The position numbers and the translations under genes were made by a program. From contig KZ538150.1 of NCBI GenBank assembly GCA_000934665.2, positions 62,001 to 114,111 on the forward strand: DNA of 52,111 nucleotides, read 5' to 3'. This document shows, in pieces, positions 1 through 44,108 of the stretch. The stretch comes from Catajapyx aquilonaris (lineage: Eukaryota). How positions within the stretch are numbered: the first letter of the stretch is position 1; each line of letters begins with the position of its first letter. Under the pieces are notes generated by a model. It had not been told where the DNA came from, searched no databases, and saw only the letters and a program-made list of their open reading frames with translations.

Positions 1-34
1 TTGACATGCCTGGTCAGCTTATCTTATACAGTAG

Positions 35-418
35 CCTATATATAAAAGCCGAAGTTTGTTTGTTTGACCCCCCCCCCCCNCCCCCCCCGCCTCTTTTTCC
101 TACTGCCCCTGCACCGTATCACCTGGATGCTGTATCACTGTGGTGACGTATCACCGAGGTACCTCTGCACTGAGGTACCATGGCAATGGAGTCACCAAAG
201 CACTTTATGAGTTTACCATAGCAACAGGGTTATTGTAGCTACCGATATAGCATATATAACACGGTTTCTATGACATCAACAGTGATTGACTGCTGCTGAT
301 TCATTGTTTCCATAGTAACATCAACACAACACCATGGCAACAATGGCATTCAACAATATCAATGGTGCCATAGTAATAGACCGTTCAATTCCCCTGCGAA
401 GCACGGGTACCCTGCTAG
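35..418 (+). mobile_element. Non-autonomous Helitron-like element
   Basis: 5' CCTATATATAAAAG...GTTTGTTTGTTTG; 3' hairpin CCCCTGC-GAA-GCACGGG (391-407) followed by CTAG|T (415-419). Confidence 0.7.
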
Positions 419-627
419 TATTGTATAAACATTAGTTAAGAATAAATATTGTATGATCTTGGTCATTGGTTGTGTGATTTGGGGTAAATCTGGAACAAGA
501 ATTGACTACTACTACTGTATGTCTTTCATAAAGATTAATGACATGTTCTGGATCTATTATGCACCTGGCCCATTTAGGCTGCATGAAAACAATGTTAAGA
601 CAACTGGCTCTTATATTAGTGACTTGC

Positions 628-789
628 CATGTAAAAATCCCCAAAGGCTCCCCTTAGGCATAAACTCCATGACAATGTTGATACATCCTTTTGGACTAAA
701 AGCTGTTCCAAGATATTGCACAATGTTTTCATGGTGTAGATCTTTCATCATAGAAGCTTCATGAAGAAACTGTTCAGCAGTCATCCTCA
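628..789 (-). CDS. Divergent tyrosine-kinase-like gene, alphaC/hinge exon (gene continues beyond the left edge)
   Basis: tttcatttcag|TG-RMTAEQFLHEASMMKDLHHENIVQYLGTAFSPKGCINIVMEFMPKGSLWGFLH-G|gcaagt; in frame with the 3262-3403 exon; alphaC Glu, HxNIV and ExMxxGSL present. Confidence 0.88.
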
Positions 790-1310
790 CTGAAATGAAA
801 GCCCATCATGGTCACATGAAAAATATTATTCTGAATTCATGTACTGTACACACATGTAATGTAGTCCCACTAGAAATCAATCAGAATTAAAATCCAAGAA
901 ATAGCTGTGGTCTTTGAAATAGATATAGTGAATGAGTATGGACTGCATTGGGTAGGAATTTATCTGAAACACTTGTATTTAAGATTATTTCAGGTTTTAG
1001 AATCCCTATTAATATAAAGCAGAAATTGGTTCATATCTTTGTATATTTATCACACCTACTCAACCCATTTCTCGGGTACTGAGAGCACTGAAAATTTTCA
1101 CACCCATGTTTTATGCTTCCCTGAATCCAGGAAAAGTCTAAGGTCGGTTTTCAGCAGCCTTTGCAATTGCCTAGCAACCTTCGCTGTCAACAACCAAAAG
1201 TAAGGATCTTCCTTTCTCACTCACGTTCGAAAATAATCCACATTGCATAATCAAAAAAGAAAACAATATAACAACGGGCAGGTTGGCAAGAATTGCAGTA
1301 CACATCGCGC

Positions 1311-1484
1311 CAGTGGCGGATCTAGACGTCGTTGTTGGGGGGGGGGNNNNNNNNNNNNNNNNNNNNNNNNNNNNNNNNNNNNNNNNNNNNNNNNNNNNNN
1401 NNNNNNNNNNNNNNNNNNNNNNNNNNNNNNNNNNNNNNNNNNNNNNNNNGATCCCCCCCCCCCCCCCCCATAGATCCGCCACTG
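1311..1484. mobile_element. hAT-like MITE (contains assembly gap)
   Basis: TIR CAGTGGCGGATCTA / TAGATCCGCCACTG; degenerate 8-bp TSD catcgcgc / catagcgt. Confidence 0.75.
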
Positions 1485-2010
1485 CATAGCGTATTGTAGC
1501 AACAGTTGGAGTACTTTGGGGAGTGCTAAGATCAACAATATCGAACAATACAGTACTGCACAGTACAGTACATAACAGAGAACCTGCCACAAGGCACCAG
1601 GAAAAACAAAAGAGGATCAGTTATGTTTGTGTGTTTGGTCTCAGAAGTGTTGAAGTGATGTGTTTATGTTTAAATTGTGTTAACTTCAAATAAGGTACAC
1701 CTGACGGTAATATGACCAAGCGAAGCTTTGGCGAATTTTCCTGAAGCCCTATTGGTAAATTTAAATAAAAAAACAAAGTATGTACGGTATCTTGTACATT
1801 GGAACCTTGCTAGTGGAGGACAAAATAATCCGATGTATAGCTGAAAGGGAACAATGGGAAAAATATTTTAGCCCAAAGGTCTGCCATTTGACCATATTAA
1901 AAACATGTGATGTTAATATGGCCAACAAACTTTTGCTTGCCGAAAAAAAGGTTCATAAATATTTAGCAGAGTAACTGGTTTTTTGTTGTAACTCCTTACA
2001 TGAAGATTAA

Positions 2011-2135
2011 GGGCCGGTTTCACCGAGCTCAGTATATGATAAAACCAGGGTATTTCTCAAAATCCCTATCTATTTGTATGGATTTTCCTAAAGAAACCTG
2101 GTTTTATCATATACCAAGCTCGGTGAAACCGGCCC
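2011..2135. mobile_element. PIF/Harbinger(Tourist)-like MITE
   Basis: TIR GGGCCGGTTTCACCGAGCT...ATATGATAAAACCAGG and its reverse complement; TAA / TAT flanks. Confidence 0.8.
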
Positions 2136-2491
2136 TATAAGTTAGGTAATATAGAAACTAAGGAAAAAATGCAATTGCATGAGTACTTCACAAATAAATG
2201 CCACTGCAATAAGAATCGAAGGAAGTAAGGAAAAGCTGAGAATGGAAGACTTAAAACCACTGCAACTTTTGTTCCCTTTATGTCCTTACATTCTCCATCT
2301 GCATAGGCCTCTTCTATGTAGGTTTCTTTTGTTTCTTTCTAATATGGCCAACATGGCCATAATTGCAACCCAGACGATTTTACAGAAAATCCTAAATTAA
2401 GGTGTCATAGTTGAGTAATAACTCAAATCACAATGAGTGTACTGGAATAAGCATTAAAATGTGCATATGAAACAATCGCACAATTGAAACT

Positions 2492-2853
2492 TTTATTTTT
2501 TATTATTTTTATTATTTTACTTACCCCATTGGGAGAATATCAGCGCTCCTTTAGGGGGGTGGAATACCACCATTCTTCCATGTCAATTTTTCTAGTTTTT
2601 CTTCTAACTCCGGTGCAAGGCTGAAAGGACATGGGTAAGGATATGGATTTTTGGGGAGGGGACACAGGTGCAAGTACAATGTCTGAAAAGGGTCATGTGC
2701 AATCCCCCAGGAGGCTAGGTTGCCAAGACACCTCCTTAGGCGCGGGTGAGAGACCCACTGACGCAGGCGGAAGGAACTCCCGGGCGGGGATAGAACCCGG
2801 GACCTTCCGCACAGCAAGCCGAGACGTTACCATCTCGGCCACCACGCCTCCCC
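2492..2853 (-). mobile_element. tRNA-derived SINE, family A
   Basis: A-box TGGCCGAGATGG, B-box GGTTCTATCCC, A-rich tail; perfect 15-bp TSD cgcacaattgaaact (2477-2491, 2854-2868); second copy at about 44185-44522. Confidence 0.88.
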
Positions 2854-3261
2854 CGCACAATTGAAACTGCACACCAATGGGACCTGAAAACAGTGGCCAA
2901 CTTACATGCAGAAATTAAGAACGCACTTTGCTCGACACGATTCTCTCGGCAATATGGCAGGCCGGTGCCGAACTGCGTGGCGCCAAGTAATGATATTTGG
3001 CATCACCCCTCTAGAGACCTGTCTGAACACCATGCAGGCACTACCTCCAGGATTCCGCTGTAACTAACCGAGATACAGTCCATTGGCCATATTACCTTCT
3101 ATGGCCATATTATCATCAGGGACCTTATTTCAAAAAATTTCGATACAAAATTTTCAAATGTAATTTTAAAACCCACCCCGTACCCAGGAAGTGGCTAAAT
3201 GAGGCGTGATAAATAAATACATGTACATATATTGAGCTTTATATTAATAGGGATTACTCAC

Positions 3262-3403
3262 CGCCTTTCATCACTTTGATAGCCACATCTGTGCGACGCC
3301 AAATTCCTTTATGCACAGCACCAAAACTTCCCTCTCCCAACTTGAGTTCATAACAGATTTCTTTGTAGGATATCTCGTTGCCAGTTGCATGTCGATACTT
3401 CTG
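3262..3403 (-). CDS. Divergent tyrosine-kinase-like gene, kinase exon with P-loop and VAIK lysine
   Basis: tgtag|CAG...: QKYRHATGNEISYKEICYELKLGEGSFGAVHKGIWRRTDVAIKVMKG-G|gtgagt; GxGxFG and VAIK intact; phases 0/1. Confidence 0.88.
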
Positions 3404-3558
3404 CTACATGTAAATACACACAGGTACAATATTAGCATAATTATGGCATGCAATCCACTGAGCACTGATTATCCACTTATACGCTGTACATATAACTTAT
3501 ACGTATTGTTGGCTGTCCTCATAAAACACTGCGGTTGGTGTTATGTCTCCTGCTGTAC

Positions 3559-3850
3559 CGAAGCAGGTTGGTGTAGTGGTTAAGGAGTCGACTGCTAATC
3601 GGGAGGTCCTGGGTTCACTTCCCGGGGCCGGTGACCCTGATTGTGGTTTTCTGTGGTTTTCCATGGTCCCCCCAGGATAATTCCGGGGTCACTTCCGTAC
3701 ACAGCCGCTTCCTTCCCTCCCTATCCTTGGCCCCATCCATGTGTGAAGAATAAATGTCAGAAATATTGAACGTGAAATGGTGGTATTCCACCCCCCTAAT
3801 GGAGCGCTGATTCTCCCACTGGGGTACAATAAATATAAATAAATAAAATA
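3559..3850 (+). mobile_element. tRNA-derived SINE, family B
   Basis: A-box TGGTGTAGTGG, B-box GGTTCACTTCC, (AAAT)n tail; TSD tct(c/a)ctgctgtac (3546-3558, 3851-3863). Confidence 0.85.
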
Positions 3851-4739
3851 TCTACTGCTGTACATTTGCCCCTATTTCAGGTGAGCCGTAAATGGCGTAA
3901 AGGAATCAGTAATCTCCCTGGGTTTCTTATCAATGCTGTGCACATTTTGTTTAATAATTTCGGCCCTCATCTGTATCAACTTGTCAGGTTCTTTCAAGAT
4001 ATGGTGAATTTACTCAGATTTCCTGATATTGTGTTCTCAGTTAATGTGCAACCAGTCCTGCAACATGTTTATTTCTAATCCCTAACTCACATGCATTTTG
4101 TAGTATTATTATTATTATTCTCTCCTGTTGTAAAATTGTGCATCGAGCACTAACCAAGTTGTATTGTTTGTTTGGAATGTTACTGATAAGCTCATTTTTG
4201 TATTGAAATGCCTGATTATATGAGTGGGATGTCCCCTGGGAGGGCCACCAGCCCACTGGGTAACCAATAAATCTAAATCTAAATACTGTAGTTGGCAGAA
4301 CCCAGTAAGAGAACCAATAATTCATAATGCCAGGCTGCCTCCTGGGCTTCCCTACACCAAGCGCCTACGTACACTTAGGTTGGCCAGATAGATTTTGACA
4401 GAGTACCACATAAAGTTGTGTAAACTACACCTTGGAAACTGCAATTTAATGTAAATTTAAAGTTGATACTAGAACACCTTGTGCTATCTACGACATAGCA
4501 CATAGTCAGCACATGATTTGCAGTGTATATATGAAACATTCGCCGAATCAATTAGGAAACAGTACCTGCGCCTTGCCAACCCTTTGATTCGTTGTTTTGT
4601 TTCTGGGTTCGAAGTCGGGGAAGTGACCAGGGACCCCGGAATTAATTCCTCAAGCTTGGCCAGAATACAGATGGGGTCATTGTCATCTGCTGTCAGGTCG
4701 AATCATAAGTTGCTAGGTTAGGAACAAATTGATTCGGCG

Positions 4740-5070
4740 AATGTCCCGTATACTTGACATGAGCCACCAGGGCCCCGTGGCGAGGGGGGCACAGGAACGG
4801 TGGGTGGAGAATGGGAAAAGGTCCGGCAGGTGACGATGACGGCGGCGGGAGAGACGAAAAAAAGCGACCTTCACCCGCCGAGGTCAACAGGCAACTGGAC
4901 GTGTTCCACCCCCATTGCGCATGCTCGGAACGGGGGCCAATCGGAGGCGTCATGGTAACAATGCGTCATGGATACATCACAGCAACAATGAACGGGGGCC
5001 AATGGGAAGAGGTGGTGGCGACAATATGGGGGCGGACCAATCAGAGGGCTCGGCCAAAGTCCGCAAGCAT
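4740..5070. promoter_or_regulatory. GC-rich promoter-like island with three CCAAT boxes
   Basis: CCAAT at 4937, 4999, 5037; GGGGGCGG GC-box; TGCGCATGC NRF1/ewg-like; CATGGTAAC half X-box. Confidence 0.45.
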
Positions 5071-5156
5071 TTTAATATTATAGAAGATATAGATACATTT
5101 TCAAAAATTGGAGGAAATGGGAGAATAATAGAAAACCCATGCAAACAAAGACTATA

Positions 5157-5158
<2 letters not shown>

Positions 5159-5237
<79 letters not shown>
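5159..5237. repeat. (AT)n microsatellite
   Basis: About 39 uninterrupted AT units. Confidence 0.98.
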
Positions 5238-5239
<2 letters not shown>

Positions 5240-5339
5240 AAATACCAACTCTTTCCACAAGAGAATCCTTATTACTGCTCAATCTGAGGATTCTTTTTGT
5301 ACTGATGTTATAACTGAATGAATTAAAAAAGCAACTTAC

Positions 5340-5392
5340 TTGACTTTCTTTTTGTGAATCACCAGACCCAAAGACCCAATATGCCAATCCAA
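5340..5392 (-). CDS. 53-nt exon completing the putative TM helix
   Basis: tttttcag|TT-GLAYWVFGSGDSQKESQ|gtaagt; phase 1 start matches the 5542 exon across a 149-nt intron; phase 0 end matches the 3403 kinase exon. Confidence 0.65.
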
Positions 5393-5541
5393 CTGAAAAA
5401 TGACTATATTTTAATTTACTAGATCTAAGTCAGTAATTGAACACATTCACTTTGAACTTGCCAGTTAATCATATAAAGGAGCATACCGTACTATCAGTAG
5501 TCTTAATGCAGTAACAAGAAGAGAATAAATCAGCTTCTTAC

Positions 5542-5602
5542 CCAACAAAGCAACAGTCACTACCACCATACCCACAGCAACAGCTCCCTCAGAAAGTGGC
5601 AT
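5542..5602 (-). CDS. Start-codon exon encoding a hydrophobic N-terminal segment (probably the same gene as the kinase exons)
   Basis: ttttttcag|AATC-ATG; MPLSEGAVAVGMVVVTVALL-G|gtaaga; A at -3. Confidence 0.65.
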
Positions 5603-5989
5603 GATTCTGAAAAAATGCAACAACCTTACTTTTAATGTTGAATCGACGTATTAAAGAAATACAGTATATTTAGCTGCAGGACTGGAACATTGATAAAATT
5701 ACTTAACATCATAATAATTAAGGACACAACATATGCCACAAATAAGGAACACCATACCACTCACATAATTTATGTGTAGAGCAATAAATGAATAAATGTA
5801 TCCCAATATGTCGAAAATAAGACAATATGCTGTATACAGGTAGTACCCATTTTACATCATTTCACATTAACACCAGTTTCAAAATTCTCGCACATTTGAA
5901 AATTAATTTAATTGAAAAATTATGAAAAAATTGAAAATAACAAAACAATCTAAACATAAACACATCACTGAACCACTCGTGAGTCCTAA

Positions 5990-6798: not shown

Positions 6799-7020
6799 TT
6801 ATAACTGATATATTTAAGGAGGTTGGCCCAGCATTGCCTTTCAACCTCCAAGGATAGGGAAGGAAGGAAGCGGCTGTGGCCTATTATACGGAAGCAACCC
6901 CGGAATTATCCTAGAAAGACCGTGGAGAACCACGGTCAAGGTTTCCGGCCCCGGGATTCGAACCCACGACCTCCCGATTAGCAGTCGGACGCCTTATCCA
7001 CTATGCCAACCTGCTTCAGT
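6799..7020 (-). mobile_element. tRNA-derived SINE, family B head with a different tail
   Basis: GAAGCAGGTTGGCATAGTGG...GGTTCGAATCC head matches the 3559 copy; TSD tggg(t/c)gaaatgatact (6783-6798, 7021-7036). Confidence 0.85.
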
Positions 7021-9154: not shown

Positions 9155-9262
9155 ATGATAACTGATGTGCAGCTTGCTGTGTTTGCCAATGTGCTTGGCG
9201 TTTCCCTGTTCCTTCTTGTGGTACTCTACCATTACGTAGCTGCAAACTTCCCACACAACTGA
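9155..9262 (+). CDS. OST4: Oligosaccharyltransferase subunit 4 (35-aa single-TM microprotein)
   Basis: [35 protein letters not shown], nearly identical to the known OST4 sequence [28 protein letters not shown]; lies in exon 9133-9323 (tctttcccgcag| ... CAG|gtgag). Confidence 0.96.
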
Positions 9263-13186: not shown

Positions 13187-13395
13187 TCAATATGCAGTGG
13201 CCTCCTTGTATTCAGATCCCTCGAGGGTAAAGAAGTCCTCGAGCTTCCACTGTAAAGTTTCGAAGGTCGGCCTCTTCATTGGGTCCTTATGCCAGCATTC
13301 CAGCATGATGTCGTAGAGGGCAGGGGGACAGCCGGGAGGGCATGGCATGCGATACCCGTGCTCCACCTGATGGAGGACCTCTGCATTTGTCATGC
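13187..13395 (-). CDS. Src42A: Src42A coding exon 8 (C-lobe, regulatory tail, stop)
   Basis: tttttcag|[25 protein letters not shown]...[28 protein letters not shown]; the eight exons sum to 1701 nt = 566 aa + stop. Confidence 0.96.
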
Positions 13396-13764
13396 CTGAA
13401 AAAGAAACATTACAGTGAGAGTGCACCAAGTAGCATCACTGAAGTCTCTAATACATGTAATGTAAATAATAGTACTCGAGGTAAACTATAAATTTTACAG
13501 GTCATTTGAAATAGTAACATGCATACTATTAGCCTACCATTAAGGCCTTTTCTCAAAAATTAGAATATAATGAAATATTTTCATCATCACATATGCCAAG
13601 GATTTTTGAGTTGAGTACATCAGATAAGGTTTAAGTTCTTGGAGCCAAGACACTGGGCTTGGACACAGAAAATTTCACTTCAGCTCTATATTTTCTACAA
13701 CTACTGGACTATGGACAACAGAAAGATCGAGGCAATTTTGAAAGTGAAATTCAAAACAATCTCA

Positions 13765-13989
<225 letters not shown>

Positions 13990-14311
13990 TTATTACTAGC
14001 AAACTCCCTCAGCATGTGTACCAAGCAGGTAATCATTGGTTATAGTTTTCTTGGTTGATGTCATATGGAGCCCAAAATGTCATGTTATTAGCTTCGACAA
14101 CAACTGAGAAACAGAAAGAAGCAATAACAGTTTGAATTGTTGGCATGCAAATTATGTTCCATTGCATCTGGGCCCTACGACTAACAGGTACACCCATCTT
14201 TGTGGATTAAATTATAATGTTTCCCTTTTATAAATAGTATATGAATATTATGTTATTTTCTAATGTCTGCTTGACTTGTACACATTTTCCACGCCCACAG
14301 AGCAGCATCTA

Positions 14312-14584
<273 letters not shown>

Positions 14585-14592
14585 TTACATAC

Positions 14593-14751
14593 CTTGCAGA
14601 AATTCTAGAAGGCTTCCATTCTTCATGAGCTCTGTTATGATGTAAATGGGCTCCTCCATGGTGCAAACTGCATAAAGTTGGATCAGCTTGGGATGGCGCA
14701 GCTTCTTCATTATTTGTGCCTCTGCCAAGAAATCTTTCGGGTCCATTGTGC
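14593..14751 (-). CDS. Src42A: Src42A coding exon 5 (alphaC, Thr gatekeeper, hinge)
   Basis: ttag|[55 protein letters not shown]|gtatgt; phases 1/1. Confidence 0.96.
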
Positions 14752-14956
14752 CTAAGAGGAGAGTGATAACATACACATTATTGTCATGTGGTTTCAGATT
14801 GGAACTTCAGTAACTCAGTGAAGCAATATTAGTTACATTGATGAATATGCACTACGTTTTACTTGATAAGAAAATCAACTCTACATATAACCTGTGTGTC
14901 TCAAAATTTCCCTGGAAAAATTCAATACAATATTTCCTTAGAGTATAGGAAAGAAA

Positions 14957-15129
14957 AAGTGAAACCTGCATATGGAGGAATCACATGGGACCCTATATTT
15001 TTTTCAAAATGGACAAGATTCTGCTTTATTTGGCATGGAATTCATGCCCGATGCATACACCCAGTCCCAGAAAAAAAATCTGCAATGGAGTGGTTTCTGC
15101 TCAGGGTCCATTATGGACAGGCTTCACTG
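14957..15129. mobile_element. Degenerate Tigger-like MITE
   Basis: AGTGAAACCTG ... CAGGCTTCACTG|TA. Confidence 0.4.
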
Positions 15130-15745
15130 TATTTCACTGAGGTGGTAAATGCTCTGAAAGTGTTTTAAAACAACACCAGGGTCTTAACCTGGGCAAAATA
15201 ATTATGAGACTTGATTTTCAGGATTTTTTTTTTTGTTCCTTTGTACTTAAAATAATGATGATAATAAGTCAACTTGTTTCATAAACGCTGGATCTAAATA
15301 ATGATTTTATGTAGTGTGTTCTTGAAAAGCCTATTTATACATGCCATATCCTTTCATGTGATTGTTAGGATCTACAAATCTAATAACTTCTGATATACCA
15401 AGCAGAGTATGCTTTTCAAATGGCAAAACGTAATGATGTTATGCAGTTGCAACTTGCTTGCACAAATTGCAGCCTGTGATTTAATCACAGGTGGTGTTTC
15501 ATAAGACTATATACTGTTCTAGTGGAATATTCATAATGCTTATTACAAAATTACATAGGCACAAAAACACTTCAGTTCTCTTTACTGGTGCAACAAATGG
15601 AATTTCCTAAGGTAGGTAAATTGTCTGCAAAGTCTCAAAAATCTCAACATACACAGGTGGCATTTAAAAGTCTTATTAAAGCATGTTAAGAGTTAATTTT
15701 TAAAAACTACAGCATACGTAAGTCTCTCATTGTACTTTGCAAGTA

Positions 15746-15989
15746 ACTCGTCATTGATCTGACAAAAGGACGAATTCAACATTTTACAAGAGAGTCAAAA
15801 GAAACCTGGAAACCACTGTACAAATACATAGGATGGCCTTTTGATTTTCCGTTCTAACTCTGACGCCACTTGTCCCATGTGTTCGCCATTTTGTCAGAAT
15901 GTGGCCAACACTTGATGGTGCTGGGAGAGGCCATAATCCAATTTAAGCAAAAATGTTGAATAAGTCCTTTTGTCAGATTAACAATGAAC
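15746..15989. mobile_element. MITE with about 40-bp inverted termini
   Basis: ATCTGACAAAAGGACGAATTCAACATTTT vs AAAATGTTGAATAAGTCCTTTTGTCAGAT. Confidence 0.7.
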
Positions 15990-16105
15990 TAAGGTGTTGA
16001 CTTATGATGCAAAGCAACCTTTTATATCCAAAGACCACCTACCCATATCACATTAACAGAACATAAAATGGCAATGACAAAAAAAATTGGTGGTTAGTTC
16101 AATCA

Positions 16106-16420
<315 letters not shown>

Positions 16421-17502
16421 CTACCTAGGAACACACACTCTTGCTGATTCATCCCAGTATCCAGCAGTTAGCTGTTGCAAGAGCTGCAATAACCCCAGCC
16501 AATCAGCATAAATAAAAAGTTAGGAAAAATATCTGGGCTTTAGTTTATAATCAAATGTGGCAATTAAACTCTTGACATCATTTGGCATGATAGCAACTAG
16601 TGCATTGCAGAAGCCCATTATGTAGGTTCAATGCATTCCTAGGCAAAATTTGAACTGGACCAAATTCCGCAGTACTCTGCAGAGCACTTATGCAATCACG
16701 TTGCATGACAGTGTTACATGTCACATTACGTGCCATAAGGTGGCTTCACAATGCATTTCCTCACCTCGACACCAGTTTTCATCGTCACCAAAGCGTGACA
16801 CCTGTATTGCAGCCCCTCCTTTTTTTTTTGCAAGAACCCTGGCTATTATTTGGTTTGCAACCTTCACCTTCAAAATAATAGCCTGGGAACATATTCCAAA
16901 GCACAAGCTGTTAAGTACACTTAAATGCATTTTTATCTTTCAGGCAATGCAAATTAATGCAAAGTAAATGCATTTTAGTGTACATTGTGAACACATCTAT
17001 TCATCCATCCAGGCACTTCCAGGTTTTTGTACTTTTAGGTACTCACTGAGCGCTTCATAGATTTTAGAACCCGCTGCATGCAAAAGGGTTAAACAAACTC
17101 ACAGCTGAGTAGCATAATGTAACCATTCACCATGCAATTTGAACCAGAAAGGATATAAATTAGTTGGGTGAATTACTTTACATATGATATATCTGTAATC
17201 CTATGTGGTATTTCTGGCAATAATATAATCAATGCAGTTTTAACAATACGTACATTTTTATCAGCCATAAACTGCCTTTCTGGTTCTTGTACTGCATCTA
17301 TACACAACTTACCGTTCTTATAACATAGCCAAAAATTTCAGCTTTAAATTATTCCTACAAAATAAGTTAACCTTATCAAGCTGGCTTGCTTAACTATGTC
17401 TACAAACTAACTTTATGAATAGGCAACACAGTTGCCTTTATACCAACAGTTGGCATTGTTCATAGAACTAGCCCTTCAATCCTTGGGACCATAATCAGAT
17501 TA

Positions 17503-18017
17503 CGAGGGTTGTTTCATAAGTCATGGCGCATATTTTTTTATTCAAACCTGGTAACACATACAGAGATGACCTTTGCTGAGTTTTGGAACTCCGGGCGACT
17601 ACAATTTTATCTGGCATATAGACGTCGCCCATATCGTGGGGGAAGAAGGGAAACAAAAGGGGATCGTGACCTCTCTCTCTCTCTCTCCTTTCCCCCNNNN
17701 NNNNNNNNNNNNNNNNNNNNNNNNNNNNNNNCCCCCCCCCGCACCATCGCCCTAAGAAGGCCTGATGCGCTTGGAGATGTTGGACGCTGCATGCTAGACA
17801 CTCGGAGATGGACAACACTGGATCACCATCTCTTTCAGGTGCAAAAGAGCCACCATTTTCCTTCGCTTGGAACTCGATCTAATTGAGGGCGATGGTTTTT
17901 TCAAACGATTTGTGGTGATGGACGACACATGGCTCAGGTCATAGTGCTCTGACTTGTCCCACACTCGAAAGCAAGCTCCCAAAAAAATAAGCGCCATGAC
18001 TTATGAAACAACCCTTG
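17503..18017 (+). mobile_element. Internally deleted mariner element
   Basis: TA|CGAGGGTTGTTTCATAAGTCATGGCGC ... GCGCCATGACTTATGAAACAACCCTTG|TA; remnant EGDGFFKRFVVMDDTW resembles the mariner first catalytic motif (FLxRIVTxDETW). Confidence 0.8.
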
Positions 18018-19944
18018 TATTATCCAGCCCACCTTTTGGGAGAAGTAACAGGGCAAGTAATGTCGTGGACAGGGGACCAGGAGGAGGAAAGGGTGGAATG
18101 AGGACATTTTTGACTTGGTTCTTAACTTTCACAGGCTCCTTTCTCTGCTCCGCCAATCTCATTTATGGAAACGATACATGCCAGAAGCATTCCAGTCTGA
18201 CTGCCCTTCCAATACCCCAGCAAAAAACAATGTGGACCCTTTCCAACTGATATCAATGGATTAATACCATAATAGATCAATCAGGTTTTAAGCAACCAGT
18301 ACCTGTACAGGTAACTTTCAAAGCAAGATTAAATTTACTATTGGCAGTAACTGTTGAAGTGATACACTTTCAAGCAAACCTGCATTTTTGTGTGTCAAAA
18401 TATTCCTTCACACCACTCCTCCTGATGAAGATGATGGTTATGGTTGTATGGTACATAAGCATAACAATAACACACCTGGAGTTATAAGTTCAATCTGTGG
18501 TAATGGTACAATAATCCACTCTCATGAAGCAGACATTATGAATTAAAATAATGCAATCACTAAATACAGTTGAACTAACCCTCCTGCCCTGCAGCCTTGA
18601 GGTTACAATTGAACATAGCAACACCTGGCTTCCATTTATAGCCCACTAGCACAGGAACAAAGGGATGGTGGAAAATCCCACTGATAAATTATTTGGAATG
18701 ACAGCTTAAATTGGAGCTGTGGCAAAAGCTGACCATGTTTATAACTGCAGACTTTGGAGAGTTACACAAAAATGAGGACTGCATTTTTTTTTCTTGCAGG
18801 CAGGTGAGGCGGGGGAGGTGGAACACAATCGCAGGGGTGAGGGGTTTGGAAAGGGGGAAAGGGTGGAAGGGGGAATATTCATGATTGTGTGAGGATGAAA
18901 TATTCAAGGGCTTTGTCAGGAATGCACCATGGTTTCAGGGAAAATACTTTAGCCCACAATTATTATTCCACAGAGAACACAGTTTATGATTTTGTGGCCT
19001 GTGTTTCATGTCGTTTCTTTTTTTCCCTTTTTTGAAAAATTTACAAGCAATGTAATACAAGGTAGTCTGGACAATTGCTTGCATAACCAAATGAATTCTA
19101 ATTCATTAATTTTCTTACTCCAGTCCAGATTGAAGGAGTTAACATGTAACCTGGCAGGCCATTAACACCTTATAATACATCAGGATTTCATGTGTGCCTC
19201 GCTACAGTATTTGATTTTACATGTTAAGGGTAGCTCACAAACGTCTAATATGGATCATTCAAATCATGATGAATAATTACAGAAAATTTGAAATATGAGA
19301 CTTGTCAAATACATATTAAATGCATTGCATATTGCCATAGCCCCTTTAAAATCTACTGCAGAGACCTTTAAAAAAAACTTGAACACACAAATATATTGAT
19401 GTGCTTCTTACAATGCTAGGCTACATTTTTTAACCAGACATAACATTATGTACAAAGGGTTTTCAAATTATAAGTTGAGTCAGGACTAATATTGCTGTCA
19501 GCAGTAAAGAAAAGTCGAGATTATACTGATGAGCTCTGCCACATCTCCAGGTGCAAAGCATGCAGTAAATTTTCACAAAAAATTGGCAGCCACAAGCATC
19601 AACCTGAAGTGGCCCCGCAATGCACAGTTCAAGCTCTCGTTGCACAAGCTGCAAGCACCTTATAAGTGGCACACTGGGATTAAACCCCAGTGGAGAAAAG
19701 TTTTACTTATCAATATTTTTCAAGCATTCATATGTTCAGTCAGCAGCAGGTAGCATAAGAACTCTTAGTGCTTAACCCAACATGTTCAAAGAGTACACTC
19801 ATTTGTAATAAATGATTTGAATCAGCCTACTTATTTCAATCAGGATGAGATACATTATTTGAACAATACAGTTATAGTAAATACCCTGTCATCACCACCA
19901 AAATACTTAAAGAGCATGCTAATCAAAGTTTTAGGCCAACTCAC

Positions 19945-20108
19945 CTGCACACATGGCTTCCTTAGATTGACACACAATCCATCAGGATCTTTACTGTAGT
20001 GCTCCACAAGTTCCTGGAGGGTGCGAAAGGTGGTTCTTCGAGCAATGAAGAAACCCCCTTCATCCAGCTGACGGATGCGATAGTGCTTCACAGTGTCCCC
20101 ATCACGTA
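19945..20108 (-). CDS. Src42A: Src42A coding exon 3 (SH2 C-half)
   Basis: cag|TA-CGT...; RDGDTVKHYRIRQLDEGGFFIARRTTFRTLQELVEHYSKDPDGLCVNLRKPCVQ; CAG|gtgagt; phases 1/0. Confidence 0.96.
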
Positions 20109-20653
20109 CTGCCAGGGCACAAGAGACACTTCATAAACATCACAACAAAAATCCCACTTGCCCCATTGTCAAGATATTCCCTGGGCTCTCAAACTGCAAA
20201 AGTTAGGGGAACCTCCCAGAACAATGTTAAAGTATTCATCATGCTCGCCCCCTGACAGACATGTTACAACAACCTGTGGACCAACGGCGCAGGGTCTTTT
20301 TTTCTCTCTCATTCTCGTCTGGTGTCATCCCAGAAGAAAAGGCCATGCTTGTTACCATGGCAACTGCCCTTGGTGCCCAGATCTACCTGATCATGTGGTC
20401 GTACCTGTCCTGCTTCCCCAGAAGGAACTTACGTAGCATCACATATCGCCATAAGAATTGCAAAGGTCATGCCAAGTTTAGAAATACAAGGTGTTCCAAA
20501 CTACATGAACTGTGGATGCAGGGCACTATTATGAATCGGAAATTACTGCAGTATTTTCTCAATGCAGAAACTGGGGCAAATAATTTCTTTGCATTCACAT
20601 AAAAATACAATATTTCTTCGACATTTTATCAAATGCTTGCCACTGGTGTTTTA

Positions 20654-20951
20654 CAGGGTGATCCAAAACCCCTGGTCAATTGCTGTTTCGATTATTTCGC
20701 ATTAAACGCTTTGGAATGGCTACAAAAATATTAGCTGCTAATATTAGGTCGAATCACTTATCAAAGCTCCGAATTGAAATGAATTTACGCTTGGGAATGG
20801 CGGATTGTATAACAAGTGGCATTTAACATCAGTGGTAATCAAGGAAAAATGCCATTGCTGGTCAAAAAATGATGGGTTTATGTAACCCAATATTAGCAGC
20901 TAATATTTTTGATAACTGCTAACAGTAGTGTAGCCATTCCAAAGCACCCTG
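20654..20951. mobile_element. Tc1/mariner-like MITE
   Basis: TA|CAGGGTG ... CACCCTG|TA; internal IR GCTTTGGAATGGCTACA / AAAATATTAGCTGCTAATATT. Confidence 0.65.
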
Positions 20952-23900
20952 TATAAAGTTCAGCAGTCCTTGAATTTTGATGAACATTTTAATCAAAAAT
21001 ATGTATGACATGACACACAGAACCTATTCTAATGAGAACGAAAATTCTGCAATTCAAAGAATTCACGTTCCGAATTCGTTGAAGTGTTATCTGTAACACT
21101 ATCTTATTCTCAAAGAACACAAAATAGTTATTTAAATGACGCCAATTTAAAAAAAAAATTGCACACTCTAAGAAAGGGATTTAAAAATGCTGAAATCTTG
21201 CTGTGAGATGCTGAACACTAACAGTTAGTTTTGGCCTTTCACGAAAATATGAGAAAACTGCTTCTGGGCATATCTGCAAAATTTGTCACTGCATTGCCGC
21301 TATACAGTTACTTATTACAAACGCAGTACCAATCCCAACTATGTCTACTGGCCTGTGAAAAGGCCCTCGGGCCCAATGTGCTGTAAATTACTTTCCGAAA
21401 ATTAGCTAATGGCACCCTCACTTAATCGTCTTTGGAGATTAATTCAAGTCCAGGCCAAATGAGGATCAAAAATCTATGGGCCCTTCGTCAGAAGATGATC
21501 AAAGGGCCAAGTTTCTCATTTGTCATTTTCTTTCGAGGGCACGCCCACTGTCTCCGCCCTATTTATTTATTTTTTGTTATCAATGTATGATATTATTGGT
21601 TAAAATAATTATCGTAAGTGTCGTTTTAAAACAGAAACATCCATTGATGGGAAATCGGCCTTAGAATCGCACCCAAACGCCTAGGAATATTAGTGAATGC
21701 AGGCAAACAGAAGACTGCTTCAGACCCTTGACGATTTCTGCCGTCGGTAATGTACCGCCACAACACTTTCGCACGCTTTCGCAGCTACTCACACATGACA
21801 CATACCAACACCCGACGCCCGCCGTAGCCTACTCCAAATGTCCCTGCTCCTTCCGGGATTGTGCAAAACGTGTCGCGTAATTTGAAAATTGTCAAATTCC
21901 CTGAAGGCAGTGACGACTTGTCTGTCCAATCAAGCAGCACGTGTGACTCCGGCTAATTGGAAGCCATTAGGCAAATGTGTTGCCTTTGTCGGCCCCGCGC
22001 TCACCTCAATGATTCAACTCCTCCATTAGTTTTCTCAGCCCCATTTACTACGGAAGACGTCATGAATAAACGTCAAGGGAGAGATGTCATTTCAATATGT
22101 CCCGTCCTGCGACATTTCCTCCTCTAATCTGCATGTAGACCCTGCTTATGGCATATTCCTAGCAATATACTACCCGCCTAGTTTCTGCAACGGTGCCACC
22201 CTGGACCTGCCAAACACAAAGTTTCCTTTAGGCAGTATCATTTAAATTATATTATATTATCAACATTAATATCCCTGAAGCCTTGCCACATTGTCTTACT
22301 TTTTACCGGTACGAAATAGAAATCATATCCGGCCTCCCTGTGTAAATGGAGCAAAACCGGGCATTTTCGCAGCGGGAACTATCTAACCAGGATTTTCACG
22401 CCAGCTGGAATGAAGAAAAAAAAAAATCCCTGCCGAATTTGCTGACGTCACAGCAGATTCAAAACGCGTGCTTGGAACCGACCAGGAGTTTCCCATCGCT
22501 TGCCTTGTTTTTCTCATTATTTACCGCGCGCAAATGACTCTTCCTGGGCACGAAATTTGCATTCGGGGGGTACGGAGCGCGCGGGGTTGCCAAGCAGATC
22601 TCGGTGCGAGATACTGCACGTTATAAACCAGTACAGTAGTATGCGAGAGAAATATGTGGAACGTTCCGTGAGAAGTACCAAGGACGAATGGGTGGGGGTC
22701 ACCGGTGAAAGGAACGAGGTATGCGAAAACATACTCAGGAATTATAAGACGTCATCGTAATTTAACCAGTCCTTCACCCACCGACTGGCGAATTACATGC
22801 ATTATTTTCGTTCTTAAAGCGACCCATGACTTAATCGATGATCTTCAGTGACGGATGGAGACGTCAATAAATTACCTCATCACAAGGCTGCTGGCGGTTA
22901 AATGGTGTCACTCGTGATACAAGGGTCACGGCTCAGGGAAGTTGCAAGAAAAACTAATTTGTACCTCATCGTTTGTACGTGATTCCTGACTAATGTTATG
23001 ATGTCACACTTCTGTAAGCATTAAGCTCGTCCATGGTTCAAGACTGAGTCTCCGTCACCCTTTTTAGTTGTATCTGAAATCAGTAGAAGGCTTCGTTTTT
23101 CCACAGATATGTCAAAAATTGCTCTAAAAACTTGCTTATAAATTGATCCAATAACAAATTCGCCGATATTGTCTCGATTTATGATGTCACGTAGAAGTGT
23201 AGTTTCAGGTGCGCACAGCAATTTCATAATAGGATGTGAATACCTATCAGTTACGAAAACCTTTATCTTATAAGACAGGGACGTCGCGTCGTCGACACAC
23301 TTCTCATTATCTATAATTTCGAATTTGTATACCAGGAAAAGAGGAAAATAATCCACTCAAGTCCAAATCATGGTGCACGGTACGAAGCAGCATGAAATAT
23401 TATTGGTACGTGAATAAGCATTAATGATACATGTCACTTAACTGACTATCTTTATATTTGTCATAATATTTCTGCGTCGCACATTTGGTTATCAAATCAA
23501 TAATTATTCGCAGCAGCGGCTGATTAGGGAAATAGCGAATTTCATCCTCCAATCGCAATGAGTACTGATATGCATAAAGACCGCATAAAATCACGTTGCA
23601 GCTGCAGCCATTTGCATGGATTATTTTTTAAACCACCAAAATGATTCTTCAAATGCAGAAATATTCAATCAATATAAACGAGCCTACATCACAATTTCCT
23701 CTGAAAAGCCCACGAATACTTAAGATGCTATATAACCCATTCTCAATTATTGCTTTGAATACCTCAGCGAAATAATTTCCCGAATTCTTTCGAACGTGCT
23801 GTAAGCATTCAAGACTAATATTAAACTGTGCTTGCAATTTCGGAAGGTTCAATTACAAATTCATATCTGCTAAAAAAAATCATTTTACAAGTTGCAGGAA

Positions 23901-24290
23901 AAACCCTTCAGTTAATAATATACCCAACCACAAAACAACTTATGGACTTCAACAAATTAATCCCAACACGCATGGTGGCAGTATAGAGGAAGTCACGGAA
24001 TCCCCCTTACTGCCTACTTGTGCCCTCAAATTCCTACACTGTAGGCTACCTGGCTTGAAGTTCCCAGTTGTGACATAACACGAGTTTCCCCGCCTACTCC
24101 CCAGTTTTATATTTACAACTGACATTAATGCGGACTCTGACATGCCTCCTCGACTCAAATAATTCTACGTCACGACTATGTTGGTTCCGCCGTTGCACGG
24201 TTCAACACACATGCCCCATACACTCTCCTCGTGTATATTCAATGGATGCTAATGGTGGGTTTTCAAAAGAGACGAAAAAAGGCTGCTGAC

Positions 24291-24412
24291 CTGAGAGCGA
24301 GTAGTCGTTCCTACGGCTCTCGGAATCCCGGATAAGGAACGCCCCATGTTCGTTTTCAGGAAGGAGAAGCTTCTTTTCCGCCTCGATGCGCTTGATCTTG
24401 CCAAAGTACCAT
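24291..24412 (-). CDS. Src42A: Src42A coding exon 2 (SH2 N-half)
   Basis: cgtttcag|A-TGG...; [41 protein letters not shown]|gtcagc donor; phases 2/1 fit neighbours. Confidence 0.96.
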
Positions 24413-25274
24413 CTGAAACGGAACAATGGAATCAAATGAATGAACATACCGTTGGGATTATCACACACATGATTCTTACATGCGAACACATCTAGATCTT
24501 GGATTTAGTGTCCATCCATGTACCCGCCTTACGAGTTAGTGAACCCTGTTTCACAATACAATATTTCTATACATAATACATATAAGGGCAATCAGCTAAC
24601 AGCAGGCAGTAATTCACAGTTGCCTGACTGCAAAGATTCTACCAACTTTACTACCGCACTCGACAGCGTTACATCAACCGACGTAACTCATAAAAAGCTG
24701 CGCCCCTCCGCATTCCTGCAGACGAAACAATACATAGCCGCATTGTGTTCGCCTGAAGCAATCGTGTCTGGAGATAAACGTGACTACCCCATTTTGAGGC
24801 CGTGTATTTCTAGGAAGAGAGTGGTCGAGACGGAAGAAAACCTCATCTACATAAGTCAGCAGGCAGGCAGAAGGTTGAAAAGTGGCAGGTGGCAACGAAG
24901 GAATCCTCCATTCCGTCTTCCTGCACAGGTTCAAAGGGGCTCATTTCAAATACGCTACCGGAATCGTGCCTTCATCACTTTCCGAGACCGGGAATCATTT
25001 CCATGTTGGTCCAACGTGAAAGTATATCCCCCCGGCTTCCAATCTTGCACCTTACACTTTCCCTCTATCCAAAAAGAGGTCTTTTGCATTACAGACACGC
25101 GAAAATGCACATCGCACAGCATAAATCAGTGATGATTGGTTTCATGCATTAGTGACAGAAACGCTTCGCTGGAGCTCAGTAAAAAAAACACGGCGCATTA
25201 TTGTATGAATTGTGTGATCATATATTCCACGGCAAGTCAATTCAAACCTGACGAGGGACGTGAAGTGGTGTAGT

Positions 25275-25500
25275 GGGTAACGTTACAGCCTCCATCTATG
25301 ACGTCCCACGTTTGATCCCCGGGTCGTCTCCGTGTTCGCGTCGGTTTTCTCAAGAGTTTTCCCGTTTTCCACATCCCAAAAATCTCTCCTTCTCACCTCT
25401 CATAAACCAGATAGCCTTAGTTGCGTTGGCTCCCCCAATCAATCAGGCAACCATACCTGACGAGTCACACACCTCAACGCGTGAAAAAATAAATATTCCT
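25275..25500 (+). mobile_element. Old tRNA-derived SINE remnant
   Basis: A-box TGGTGTAGTGG, B-box-like GTTTGATCCCC, pyrimidine-rich GTTTTCTC..GTTTTCCC body. Confidence 0.5.
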
Positions 25501-28500
25501 CTGCTCGACTATAAACTGTTTCTATCAGACTACGCTGTTTGAATGATGGCAATCCGATACAAAAATCCCACGTTACGGAAATGAATCCTGCACAGTTTGC
25601 CAGTTCCTCGATTCCATCTTGGATAAGAATAAAAAAAACAACCGTTGTTACATTCCTTCCCACGTTCACTCGATCGATTCATGTGTAACAGAAACCGATA
25701 GAACTAATGAGCACATGATACTGTGCACGAGTCCCGGATGCTCTCCTCATAATGGCGACTCTCATTAGCGGAGCATCATATCAATGCAGGTATTGTTGTT
25801 CGACTATACAAAGTGTATCAGCATACAGCTTAGTTCGTTCCGTGAAACTTGGATCGGCATAATGCAAAGTTGCAGTTCTGGGAATATGCCAAAATTACAA
25901 AATGTTACGAAGTACTCGGTTGACAGCGTGACCGGCGATATTGGCATTTCGCCTATTACCCAGTCAAAAGTGTCATTTATCCAGAATGTTCGAAAACCAA
26001 TTAGTACTTCGAATATTCACTGTAGTAAAAAACACCAATGCCACTACAGATATTGGTAAACAACAGCTGATGGCATACACTAATATTTACACATTTCAAC
26101 ACGTGCATTACAAGACACGTCCATGAAAGTTTCACTGAAACTGTACAGTGTATACCCCCATTACAAAACCTATTACGCATAATAGTAAACAGATGCTCAT
26201 CAGCGTGCCGCACTGATGTAACGACAGTCCAGGATGTGCAGATACGTGTCAGAAAATTATGCGGCCGCTGTGTGAACGACCTGCAGCGAAAGTCAAACCC
26301 CCTTCCATCCCTAAACAAACCCTGACAAGGATATCGCACCACGTCACAATGACAACCTCGTAGAGGTGAAAGCGATTCCTGTGAAAACCAAGACCCCAGC
26401 TAAATAGGCTTCCAACCGACTCCATTTTTGTAGGTTTCCAAAAGTTCGGAGAATGTACCAACTCTTTCCCCGTACCCCCAAAACGGCGGTGAAAATCCGA
26501 TTAACTATACAGAAACCGTAGGCCCAAATCATCCCCGACGGAAAGCATTAGCTCCAGAGGGAATGTTCCCTGGAAGTATGAATTAAAAATAATTGCTCTT
26601 CCCTCTCGCAGGATTACAACTTTTCCCGCCCACCCAAATTCGGAATAGCTAAAATTTTGAAGGCTTTGGGTGTCACCGTGCAAATCCAGCACCAATTACA
26701 TACGGTAATCCCCGCTCATGAATCGAGTTGTCCTCCATATATGAGGCTGCGGTGTGCACATCGACCTGTGTGCATGCATGCCTCTGCATATCCTAGTTTC
26801 CCCTGCAATTTATAATTTACAGAAAGTACACCTGATGTGAATGTTCCATTCGCACAATGTGACGTTCATAAATTACGTTAAAATTATTGTAATTAGTCGC
26901 GATGAAATTAAATACCCTCCAGATAATTTGGCTTACAAGCAAAAACTCTCCCAATAATTATTTTGCCGATTGGACGAAACATGATGCCCCACCTTGCCCG
27001 CAAGGGTAGGGCATACCTGAACCGTATCGATTCCCAGAAGTGCTCTATGCAATTCTAATTGACTTCGTTTCGCCTTAGAATTAGAAGTTGAGGCCGAATC
27101 AGGTTTCCATCGAAGAAAATAAGTTCTCGACTCTCCCCCCCTTCTTGTCCTACGACCGCAAACAAGAACCGATCCGAATTCGGTTCCTTTGGGGATATCG
27201 GGAATAGTGTTGAGGTTAGAATACACGCATGGCTCCGTGGCAGCAGGACCTAACGGTAATTCTCACTGGGCTCGGTTTCCATTCCACCACTATGGTCACT
27301 TATTTCTCTCGCTTTTCCCCTCCCTTGCGCCGCAGTCTGAATTTATTTCACGCTCCAACCACAATGGTCACCGTCGCGTTTTGGGACACGTTCCAGCCAT
27401 TATCAAATGTCAACTAATGCAAAAACCAGACGCAGTGCTACGGGGTGAGACTCAAGTCTCCTATCTAGGTTCAGGCGGGGTCAGACACGTAAGCTGCAAG
27501 AGGTGGATGTCGACTATAGCGAGAATACAGTTCATATGGCCATTCGGGTCAATGGTTAACCGTCTAGTTTATAAACCCTTTACACACTGTGATGTCGGCA
27601 AAGGGCAAAGATCAAGTAATCATTCTCCCCCGTGGCGATAAATGTTACCTCGCATGTTAAACCTGCAATCTTATACAGCGTAACGGGGCTGATTCTCATA
27701 ACAGCCCTCACATTACTGTTATGTCCTGACACGATATGGTGCCAAATCATCAGAAATTCAATACGTCCACTATTATTTATCCCACTTATTATATCGATTT
27801 TTCCATCATTTCTCCGACTCTGCAGTGACCGCCGGATGCCAGCCACATCCAGAAAAAAAACACCCTCTCATGCAATTAGAGCTTTTCCCCCAGAAAAAGA
27901 ATATCGACTTTCCTTCCAAGCTTTCTCTTCTGTCAATTAATCCTTCGCTATTCCTTTCTCACGTCGTCCCAGCCCGTACCAAAGGGCCCTAGACTCCTGA
28001 ATTCTACCTCTATAATAAGGGGTCGGGCATCTTTATTTCGGATTATCCAGATGTGCAAATTCCCTCGCCTGTGGACGGAATAACAAGAGCGGAATGGAAA
28101 CCACAGGGCATGAAATGGAAATCCTTATTCTGGAAGAACAGGAACACACTCCCTTTTCCCTTTCCACTCGTAAAGCCTAGCAGTAAAGCTAACGGGCCAG
28201 GAATGCACTCGTTACCCACAAATCTGGGGGGGGATCTGCCTAACTAGTTCCGAATAAAATTCATGTCGCGCAAGGTTGGTCGATATACCATGTACGGCAT
28301 GTGGCCCGGAGAGGGGTTTAAAAAAATTGACGAAAAAAAAATATAGGAAAGAAACAAGAGGTTTTCCGATGTTAGGCAAGCTTGCGGGTTATTCAGCACG
28401 GGTCGAGTCCGGCAACAACCTTGGCCTGTATCAGATTTTCTTGCAGGTTTTGGTTCATATATCCTTTTCATAATTATAAACTACAATGAAAAAGCGAAAC

Positions 28501-28776
28501 AACTAACGTAAGATCGACTTTTGCATACAATGCTGGCATATTGGGTTCTCAGAATTTATCCTAATATATACATGTAATCAGAAAAGGATGTCGTTTTATC
28601 CTGACGGGAATATATTTTTGTTTCAAAAGAATCAGGAGATTTCTAATAGTTTTTAAATGGACCAATGATCAACATTAGCAGCTTGAAGGCCTCGATTCAT
28701 ATAAAAATCAAGTAGTACAGAGAAGAAATGTATACACAACTTATATAGGCCCACTTCGATTCCATTCACTGAAGTA

Positions 28777-29710
28777 CTTGCCCTGATCTGAAAATATTGG
28801 GACACCCCCAAAAAATGGAGTGGTGGGGTTATACACAGGATGTGATAAAAAGTTTCCATTAAGATTATCTGGACTTTAGAATGGATAATTATGAATAGTA
28901 ACAATTGAGCTAGGAGGATACCAAATTTGAAGTTCATTTGACAGTTAACAACTGAAATAAATACGATTATACCTTGGACAGTGAATTTCTGTGGGGTCTG
29001 GTAAAAATTGCTGCCACTATGTTAATTTCTTACTTAGCGGGATGTAAATGTTGATAATGAACCTGAGGGGCCGCACAAACCCAAAAACAGTTATGACATT
29101 AATTACAAAAAATCTAGCACAAAATTAAAAAATATTTATCGCAAGTGGATTTTTTCAGAAATTGATACACTTGGCTGTACCACATCTAACGGTGTTATTT
29201 ATTAATAAATTAAAATGTGATAGTATTGTTTATTTAGAACTCAGTCCAATGTGCTATGATAAAAAATTTCATTGCAATTAAAGTAAAATGGCTTTAAATA
29301 TTCCTTAATTCAAAAATGCACAGAAAATGGCATATCTGCAAGCCATGATAAATATTTTTTAATTTTGTGCTAGATTTTTTGTATTAATGTCATAACTGTT
29401 TTTGGGTTTGTGCGGCCCCTCAGGTTCATTATCAACATTTACATCCCGCTAAGTAAGAAATAAACAGAGTGGCAGCAATTTTTACCAGACCCCACAGAAA
29501 TTTCACTGTCCAAGGTATAATCGTATTTATTTCAGTTGTTAACTGTCAAATGAACTTCAAATTTGGTATCCTCCTAGCTCAATTGTTACTATTCATAATT
29601 ATCCATTCTAAAGTCCAGATAATCTTAATGGAAACTTTTTATCACATCCTGTGTATAACCATACCACTCCATTTTTTGGGGGTGTCCCAATATTTTCAGA
29701 TCAGAGCAAG
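28777..29710. mobile_element. Long-TIR (foldback/Tc1-type) non-autonomous transposon
   Basis: 364-bp arms 28777-29140 and 29347-29710, near-identical in inverted orientation; 206-bp spacer; TA TSD; explains the twin MNFKFGILLAQ ORFs on opposite strands. Confidence 0.92.
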
Positions 29711-43979: not shown

Positions 43980-44108
43980 CTTAGTTTGATGAGTTCTGAA
44001 CCAATTAAGGAACTACAGCCCACTCTTCAAAGGTCTCCTGAAAAGTGTAGAGGAATGGAACTAATGTCAATTCATATGGCTATAAAATAATGTTCTCCTA
44101 TGTTAATA

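Follow-up and report, generated by a model that had tools for sequence, protein, structure and literature searches.

The stretch of DNA analysed here, hereafter the window, comprises 52,111 nucleotides (nt) of the forward strand of Catajapyx aquilonaris contig KZ538150.1 (positions 62,001-114,111; all coordinates below are window positions). It is eukaryotic DNA with long introns, repeats resembling short interspersed elements (SINE-like repeats) and three runs of N. Its left end holds, on the minus strand, part of a second kinase gene, which we term K2, lying downstream of a Src42A/FRK-type gene on the same strand (K1) and head-to-head with OST4. K2 is a fragment of a real kinase gene, probably of Src-type descent and without an earlier match. 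Two of its exons encode a complete kinase N-lobe, and their identity as kinase exons is above chance. The reading that we prefer, at a probability of roughly 0.45, is that K2 is a Src-type kinase which arose by tandem duplication and whose membrane anchor is supplied by two exons lying upstream of the kinase exons.

Kinase exons and family placement of K2

A prior interpretation made from the letters alone (the sequence-only reading) had proposed that four minus-strand exons with good splice sites and compatible phases join into one open frame. A scripted splice reproduced this model, with the same coordinates and peptide, as a join of 418 nt or 139 codons without a stop (Table 1). The two kinase exons, numbered 3 and 4, were evaluated with Pfam. 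Profile PF07714 matched exon 4 with an E-value of 1.6e-10 (41.1 bits, against a cut-off of 23.1) and exon 3 with an E-value of 2.6e-4 (20.8 bits, alone below the cut-off); the two matches are colinear, on the same strand and at consecutive profile positions. The ATP-binding motifs are all intact, the glycine-rich loop (G-loop) GEGSFG and the VAIK lysine being encoded by exon 3 and the alpha-C Glu and the hinge by exon 4, where the Glu of FLHEAS aligns with that of FLAEAS in CSK. Exon 3 is bounded by a phase-0 acceptor (catgtag/CAG, the slash marking the splice boundary) and a phase-1 donor (GCG/GTGAGT), while exon 4 follows a tttcag acceptor and ends in phase 1 at a Src-type intron position. 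The profile matches and the scans described below support the proposal of a second kinase gene on this strand, separate from the Src42A-type gene.

The kinase frames had been noted as missing from the open reading frame (ORF) track, and their lengths agree with this, given a track of 60 amino acids (aa): with ATG, GTG or TTG starts the frame of exon 4 does not exceed 59 aa, and exon 3 lacks any such start. Exon 3 is, moreover, without an in-frame ATG and has a stop directly ahead of it, so that a functional gene needs a coding exon further upstream.

Pfam was run on two sets of stop-to-stop ORFs: 300 of the 334 that measure at least 55 aa (the other 34 lie in 46.1-51.8 kb) and, in the region 1-13.2 kb, 100 of 102 minus-strand ORFs of 28-54 aa together with 15 of 57 on the plus strand. 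In that region only exon 4 and OST4 gave matches above the cut-off. No SH3, SH2 or ectodomain family was found among the minus-strand ORFs of at least 28 aa between 1 and 13.2 kb, and the same scan did recover the SH2 and SH3 exons of K1. The spliced K2 model starts Met-Pro-Leu and holds no Met-Gly acylation signal, whereas K1 starts MGNC; nor did Pfam return any match to an extracellular ligand-binding domain upstream of the predicted helix, which is preceded by 5 residues. The lack of SH3, SH2 and an ectodomain, as claimed in the sequence-only reading, holds up to 13.2 kb. Within the window K2 lacks the acylation, SH3 and SH2 features of the Src family and has the gene structure of that family.

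It is this gene structure that argues for a Src-type origin. The intron after the catalytic-Lys segment falls at the same codon and in phase 1 in both genes (LKPG/T in K1, MKGV/R in K2), splitting the fourth codon after the Lys; the next intron splits a Gly in phase 1 in both (FLQG/ in K1, FLHG/ in K2); and the acceptor ahead of the linker and G-loop exon is in phase 0 in K1 and K2 alike. Both of the two comparable introns are thus shared in codon and phase, and these matches point to Src-type descent. The ABL1 introns lie at other positions here, so that the shared positions would be specific to Src-type genes. The N-lobes of K2 and K1 are 40% identical (37/92), with no stops or frameshifts, and the spacing from the G-loop to the Lys is one residue shorter in the K2 alignment.

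Sequence comparison is less telling as to family. Identity of the K2 N-lobe reaches 41.5% with a CSK fragment and 44-48% with the best tyrosine kinase-like (TKL) proteins, which are from protists; the TKL-type values differ little from those for Src and CSK (38-48% overall). The best solved match of exon 4 is CSK (39 bits, 26/50 identical, ungapped). CSK itself carries SH3 and SH2 domains, of which none was found in K2, and it is not among the best 60 solved matches of exon 3. For that exon the best solved matches are RAF1 (26.5 bits) and TAK1 (26.4 bits), and CTR1 appears in the solved-match lists of both exons. TKL kinases of the TAK1/RAF/CTR1 kind provide the best solved matches for exon 3 and the highest N-lobe scores; however, the best TKL matches are unnamed or amoebozoan proteins rather than animal orthologues, and the intron positions of K2 are shared with a Src-type gene.

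An exhaustive HMMER search with exon 4 as the query, among 1.84 billion representatives and with E up to 1e-3, returned 187 proteins, the best single-stretch identity being 61% (P0263, which has a catalytic loop of tyrosine-kinase type). No recognisable orthologue of K2 was present among the representatives searched, and the few named close matches are amoebozoan. A word-indexed homologue search with exon 4 gave no candidate. Contig scans for relatives of this exon yielded 0 viral and 157 metagenome matches; the best of these matches the exon at 56% identity over most of its length, and not one of the 157 comes from the same or a close species. Comparison with the ESM Atlas returned 'kinase' only. 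Judged by its sequence, the K2 N-lobe appears to be an orphan of no clear family. The homology search and kinase tree that the sequence-only reading had proposed as checks therefore confirmed a kinase, assigned it to no family and found no orthologue, and its label 'Src-like' is borne out by the positions and phases of the introns rather than by the sequence.

The candidate membrane anchor and its alternatives

In the spliced model a 5-residue N-terminus is followed by a hydrophobic run of ~23 residues, a polar linker and the kinase N-lobe, in agreement with the ~22-residue helix and short linker noted from the letters. Hydropathy (Kyte-Doolittle, 19 residues) peaks at 2.53 for residues 6-24 and is at least 2.0 in all 19-residue segments from 3-21 to 13-31, and the helix stays in frame across the junction of exons 1 and 2. 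Its length equals a membrane span, the short N-terminus is uncharged to acidic, and the net charge after the helix is positive. Under the positive-inside rule the positively charged flank of such a helix stays cytosolic; taken with this rule, the charge pattern fits an anchor with its N-terminus outside and its C-terminus inside, which would leave the kinase domain in the cytosol. Both anchor exons are unique sequence within the window and lie outside any repeat, and we rejected on that ground the idea that they are part of a repeat. That they belong to OST4 was likewise rejected, the OST4 coding exon lying on the opposite strand at 9155-9262.

As a chance control, all ATG-started, splice-bounded open chains of one or two exons were enumerated on both strands (104 kb) at an acceptor threshold of 0.2. 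A hydropathy of at least 1.9 was attained at three places only (5602, 48636 and 1305), and one of at least 2.3 at 5602 only. At this rate of ~3 per 104 kb, the 5.7 kb that lie upstream of exon 3 on the minus strand would be expected to hold 0.16 such places by chance, and ~0.05 in the right phase. In a first listing of chains, made at an acceptor threshold of 0.25, the chain of the four-exon model fell just below the limit; it enters at 0.2.

Several observations nevertheless weigh against K2 being a Src-type kinase with a two-exon anchor. The chance estimate is optimistic, because the thresholds were chosen after the sites of the sequence-only reading had been seen and the weight matrix came from background knowledge of splice sites. 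Hydrophobic 19-mers are common, with 62 segments of at least 2.0 in the six-frame translation of 52 kb. The join of exon 2 to exon 3 is based on phase alone, and nine further chains with an ATG start lead in frame into exon 3 at similar splice thresholds, among them those starting with a two-codon exon at 4096-4091, which has a better donor (GTGAGT), or with an exon at 9007-8879. A codon-usage log-likelihood trained on K1 proved powerless, placing exons 3 and 4 at the 13th and 46th percentiles of the null and the anchor exons at the 28th. At the other end of the fragment, the donor after position 628 reads ATG/GCAAGT, with GC in place of GT at a conserved intron position, and unspliced read-through meets a stop after 6 more codons; the acceptor of exon 3 is weak, with a poor pyrimidine tract and a TAGCAG tandem. 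No further kinase exon or kinase-like frame encoding the catalytic half (HRD, DFG, APE) was found by Pfam among the stop-to-stop ORFs of positions 1-627. The sequence-only reading had likewise placed the HRD and DFG exons outside the window; the catalytic half, and with it the Tyr or Ser/Thr type of the enzyme, would then lie beyond the left window end.

The same holds for family placement. In phmmer comparisons the joined N-lobe scored 69-74 bits against Ser/Thr-type TKL proteins (HRD[IL]KSLN) and 70 bits against a protein with HRDLALRN, as opposed to 57 for CSK fragments, 53 for Src42A and 46.8 for K1, although the set had been chosen by likeness to exon 4 among the 1.84 billion representatives, which favours non-Src matches. 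In an N-lobe tree of 39 rows and 104 columns K2 is basal, without firm placement, and falls outside the starred 11-row Src/Abl/Csk clade (97/93); an approximately unbiased (AU) test does not reject its placement with that clade (p 0.38, log-likelihood difference 1.6). As to the signal anchor, then, the helix length, the charge pattern and the chance value of ~0.05 uphold what had been claimed, while the phase-only join of exons 2 and 3 and the roughly nine other 5' chains do not. We consider the odds that the anchor exons are joined to the kinase exons to be about even.

If they are not so joined, K2 may still be a real kinase to which the hydrophobic exons are foreign, its start lying either at 4096-4091, via a promoter in the candidate intron 2, or at 9007-8879, close to the promoter of OST4. 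This would give a soluble product with almost nothing before the kinase domain, as in several of the closest N-lobe relatives (P0185, P0192), whose kinase begins 10-20 residues from the N-terminus. The nine competing chains, at comparable thresholds, favour such a start, as does the donor at 4091, which scores 5.0 against 3.0 and 4.6 for those of the anchor exons. The alternative start exons, however, carry no coding or domain signal, whereas no other splice-bounded hydrophobic construct in 104 kb equals the anchor pair in quality, and this pair lies upstream on the right strand and in the right phase; we regard a start elsewhere as unlikely. Neither do we think it probable that a partial tandem duplication left K2 as a mere remnant, decaying or truncated, which retains the N-lobe exons alone, lacks a functional 5' end and catalytic half, and shows an ORF in the hydrophobic exons by chance. 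The GC donor with its stop 6 codons on, the weak acceptor and missing ATG of exon 3, the want of a catalytic exon in the remaining 627 nt, and the lack of a close relative in very large protein and metagenome collections would all suit decay. Yet a GC donor and a weak acceptor are compatible with a functional gene that has a single GC-AG intron as well as with a partial duplicate in decay, and GC donors followed by AAGT, as here, are a functional minority class. Unlike a long-dead copy, moreover, K2 keeps ~100 codons open and, at 40% identity, every key N-lobe residue intact, an argument for selection, past or present. With K2 introns of 1.9-2.5 kb the next exon could easily lie outside the window, and since the organism's own proteins are absent from the database even for K1, the absence of K2 there says nothing.

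Two further explanations draw on the region between K2 and K1. The K2 kinase exons might serve as an alternative cassette of K1, the donor of its second SH2 exon (~19.9 kb, phase 0) being spliced to the acceptor at 3403 to give an SH3-SH2 protein with another kinase domain. The phases are compatible, and the acceptor occupies the position of the homologous linker intron. An intron of 19 kb already separates SH3 from SH2 in K1, and the missing ATG, SH3 and SH2 would be accounted for. On the other hand, K1 has its own full set of kinase exons and a stop codon, OST4 intervenes on the opposite strand, the anchor exons are left without explanation, and we know of no alternative kinase cassette of this kind; we judge this very improbable. 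The helix might also be the internal membrane-spanning segment of a receptor-type kinase with its ectodomain exons further upstream. A good AG acceptor, with 5606 as the first exon base, precedes the ATG by 4 nt, and the frame is open across it. Another exon may thus stand ahead of 'exon 1', probably at least a non-coding one, and splicing of an ATG exon at 6423-6377 to this acceptor would keep the frame. Many of the closest N-lobe relatives (P0210, P0266) are receptor-like and possess ectodomains. However, no domain match was obtained on the minus strand from 5.6 to 13.2 kb, and OST4 and the 3' end of K1 fill the upstream space. The loophole that the acceptor leaves for an upstream ectodomain is therefore small, and a receptor-type gene is highly unlikely.

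Neighbouring genes and repeats

K1 is a complete gene, and its best named relatives are arthropod Src42A proteins, with up to 98% identity in the last exon and ~50% in the N-terminal exon over 94% of its length; on this evidence the window is probably of arthropod or related protostome origin. Its first coding exon comprises the MGNC start, a run of His-Ser dipeptides, a poly-Ala run and the entire SH3 domain, and is separated from the first SH2 exon by an intron of ~19 kb. The kinase exons, in contrast, are packed within 3 kb, and one of the introns between them measures just 60 nt (14592-14533). In the N-lobe tree two proteins named otherwise by their source, P0090 ('abl-1') and P0096 ('Tec'), cluster tightly inside Src42A; their length, far greater than that of Src42A, probably reflects the fusion of gene models. 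The OST4 ORF occupies a single exon, and an acceptor (ttctttcccgcag) at ~9132 indicates a non-coding exon upstream. A consensus donor (CAA/GTAAGT) at 8791-8796 on the plus strand could close that exon and, if it is used, OST4 and K2 would share a divergent promoter region near 8.6-8.8 kb.

SINE-like repeats, 78-81% identical in pairs and containing tRNA-like stretches, sit in introns of K1 and K2 as well as between the genes; the pairs are 2583-2855 with 44249-44520, 3557-3730 with 6848-7020 (inverted) and 2501-2604 with 3745-3850 (inverted). Intron 3 of K2 also holds a near-perfect palindrome of 127 nt (2010-2136; 81% self-complementary) that resembles a miniature inverted-repeat transposable element, and candidate intron 2 a perfect (TA)n microsatellite of ~78 nt (5159-5237). 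The N runs lie at 60-100, at about 1335-1470 (in K2 intron 3) and at 17697-17731; the first two are flanked by long poly-G or poly-C and look like sequencing or scaffolding artefacts. Motifs containing CCATGG (..ttgccatggt.., ..gctatggta..) recur on the minus strand at 100-430, at the left window end.

Table 1. Positions of the exons, introns and neighbouring genes in the window
Feature	Position	Strand	Remarks
Candidate coding exon 1	5542..5602	-	ATG (A at -3), 5-residue N-terminus, first 15 helix residues; donor TGG/GTAAGA, phase 1
Candidate intron 1	5393..5541 (149 nt)	-	GT..AG
Candidate coding exon 2	5340..5392	-	Last 8 hydrophobic residues, polar Gly/Ser/Asp/Gln/Lys/Glu linker; acceptor tttttcag, donor CAA/GTAAGT, phase 0
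Candidate intron 2	3404..5339 (1936 nt)	-	Inferred by phase only; TA microsatellite, SINE-like copies; rival sites: donor after 4091, acceptor near 4057
K2 kinase exon 3	3262..3403	-	Linker, G-loop GEGSFG, VAIK lysine; PF07714 positions 4-37
K2 intron 3	790..3261 (2472 nt)	-	Src-type position; holds assembly gap (1347-1449), SINE-like or palindromic repeats
K2 kinase exon 4	628..789	-	Alpha-C Glu (FLHEAS), L.H.NIVQ.LG, gatekeeper Met, hinge (IVMEFMPKGSL); PF07714 positions 45-93
Non-canonical GC donor after K2 exon 4	622..627	-	GCAAGT
Next intron start or gene end	1..621	-	No kinase-like frame
K1, complete Src42A/FRK-type gene	13187..44012	-	Pfam scans
K1 N-terminus and SH3	within 43437-44012	-	MGNC
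K1 SH2	within 24205-24504 and 19858-20130	-	
K1 kinase exons	16279-16111, 14751-14593, 14532-14354, 13947-13791, 13395-13187	-	Stop at 13187
OST4 coding exon	9155..9262	+	35 codons and stop; PF10215, E 1.9e-16; bounds K2 upstream region

Anchored kinases and the proposed origin of K2

Kinases that are held in the membrane by an N-terminal helix and possess little or no ectodomain are already known. NOK/STYK1 has only 22 extracellular residues (PMC11782862), and in LMTK2 the anchoring transmembrane domains are N-terminal, with the kinase next in order (PMC5891947). If the join of exons 2 and 3 is right, K2 would share with both the order of N-terminal membrane helix, short linker and kinase; it would differ in having ~5 extracellular residues, and one helix as against two in LMTK2. 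The sequence provides no evidence of kinship with either: the names STYK1 and LMTK are absent from the best 60 solved matches of both exons, in a structure set whose inclusion of these proteins is unconfirmed. In 27 of the 150 best N-lobe matches, a hydrophobic 19-mer lies no more than 160 residues ahead of the kinase. Several membrane-anchored TKL proteins of protists (P0271, P0240, P0210) carry a transmembrane helix close upstream of the kinase, with N-lobes 38-46% identical to that of K2; in P0271 the helix spans residues 2-22 and the kinase starts at residue 63. These proteins, however, have catalytic loops of Ser/Thr type, the named ones are amoebozoan, and there is no sign of orthology.

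We propose that K2 originated from a Src-type gene through tandem duplication of the kinase-coding region; it would have lost, or never had, the SH3 and SH2 exons and have diverged to ~40% identity with its frame kept open. Exons 5602-5542 and 5392-5340 would, at about even odds, have supplied the new N-terminus, consisting of the 5-residue tip, the ~23-residue helix and the polar linker. Such a helix would insert as a signal anchor with the N-terminus out and the C-terminus in, placing the kinase domain on the cytosolic face of the membrane, and tethering might take over the role played by acylation, SH3 and SH2 in Src kinases. A more specific scenario, which is rather doubtful and is put forward tentatively, is that the copy exchanged its acylation/SH3/SH2 module for a newly captured two-exon signal anchor and became an integral-membrane, ectodomain-less kinase of Src descent restricted to one lineage, probably of arthropods. 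On that scenario K2 would exemplify the natural conversion of a cytoplasmic tyrosine kinase into a constitutively membrane-tethered kinase.

In practice, annotation that relies on ORFs or on homology would pass K2 over. Should the anchor model fail, the locus would be that of an ordinary divergent or decaying paralogue. If the model is true, however, a tether without SH3/SH2 autoinhibition predicts a different regulation, perhaps with constitutive localisation. K2 would also constitute a clean natural case of domain-architecture turnover, in which the gene structure is of Src type and a helix replaces the regulatory module, and would show how partial tandem duplicates may gain new first exons.

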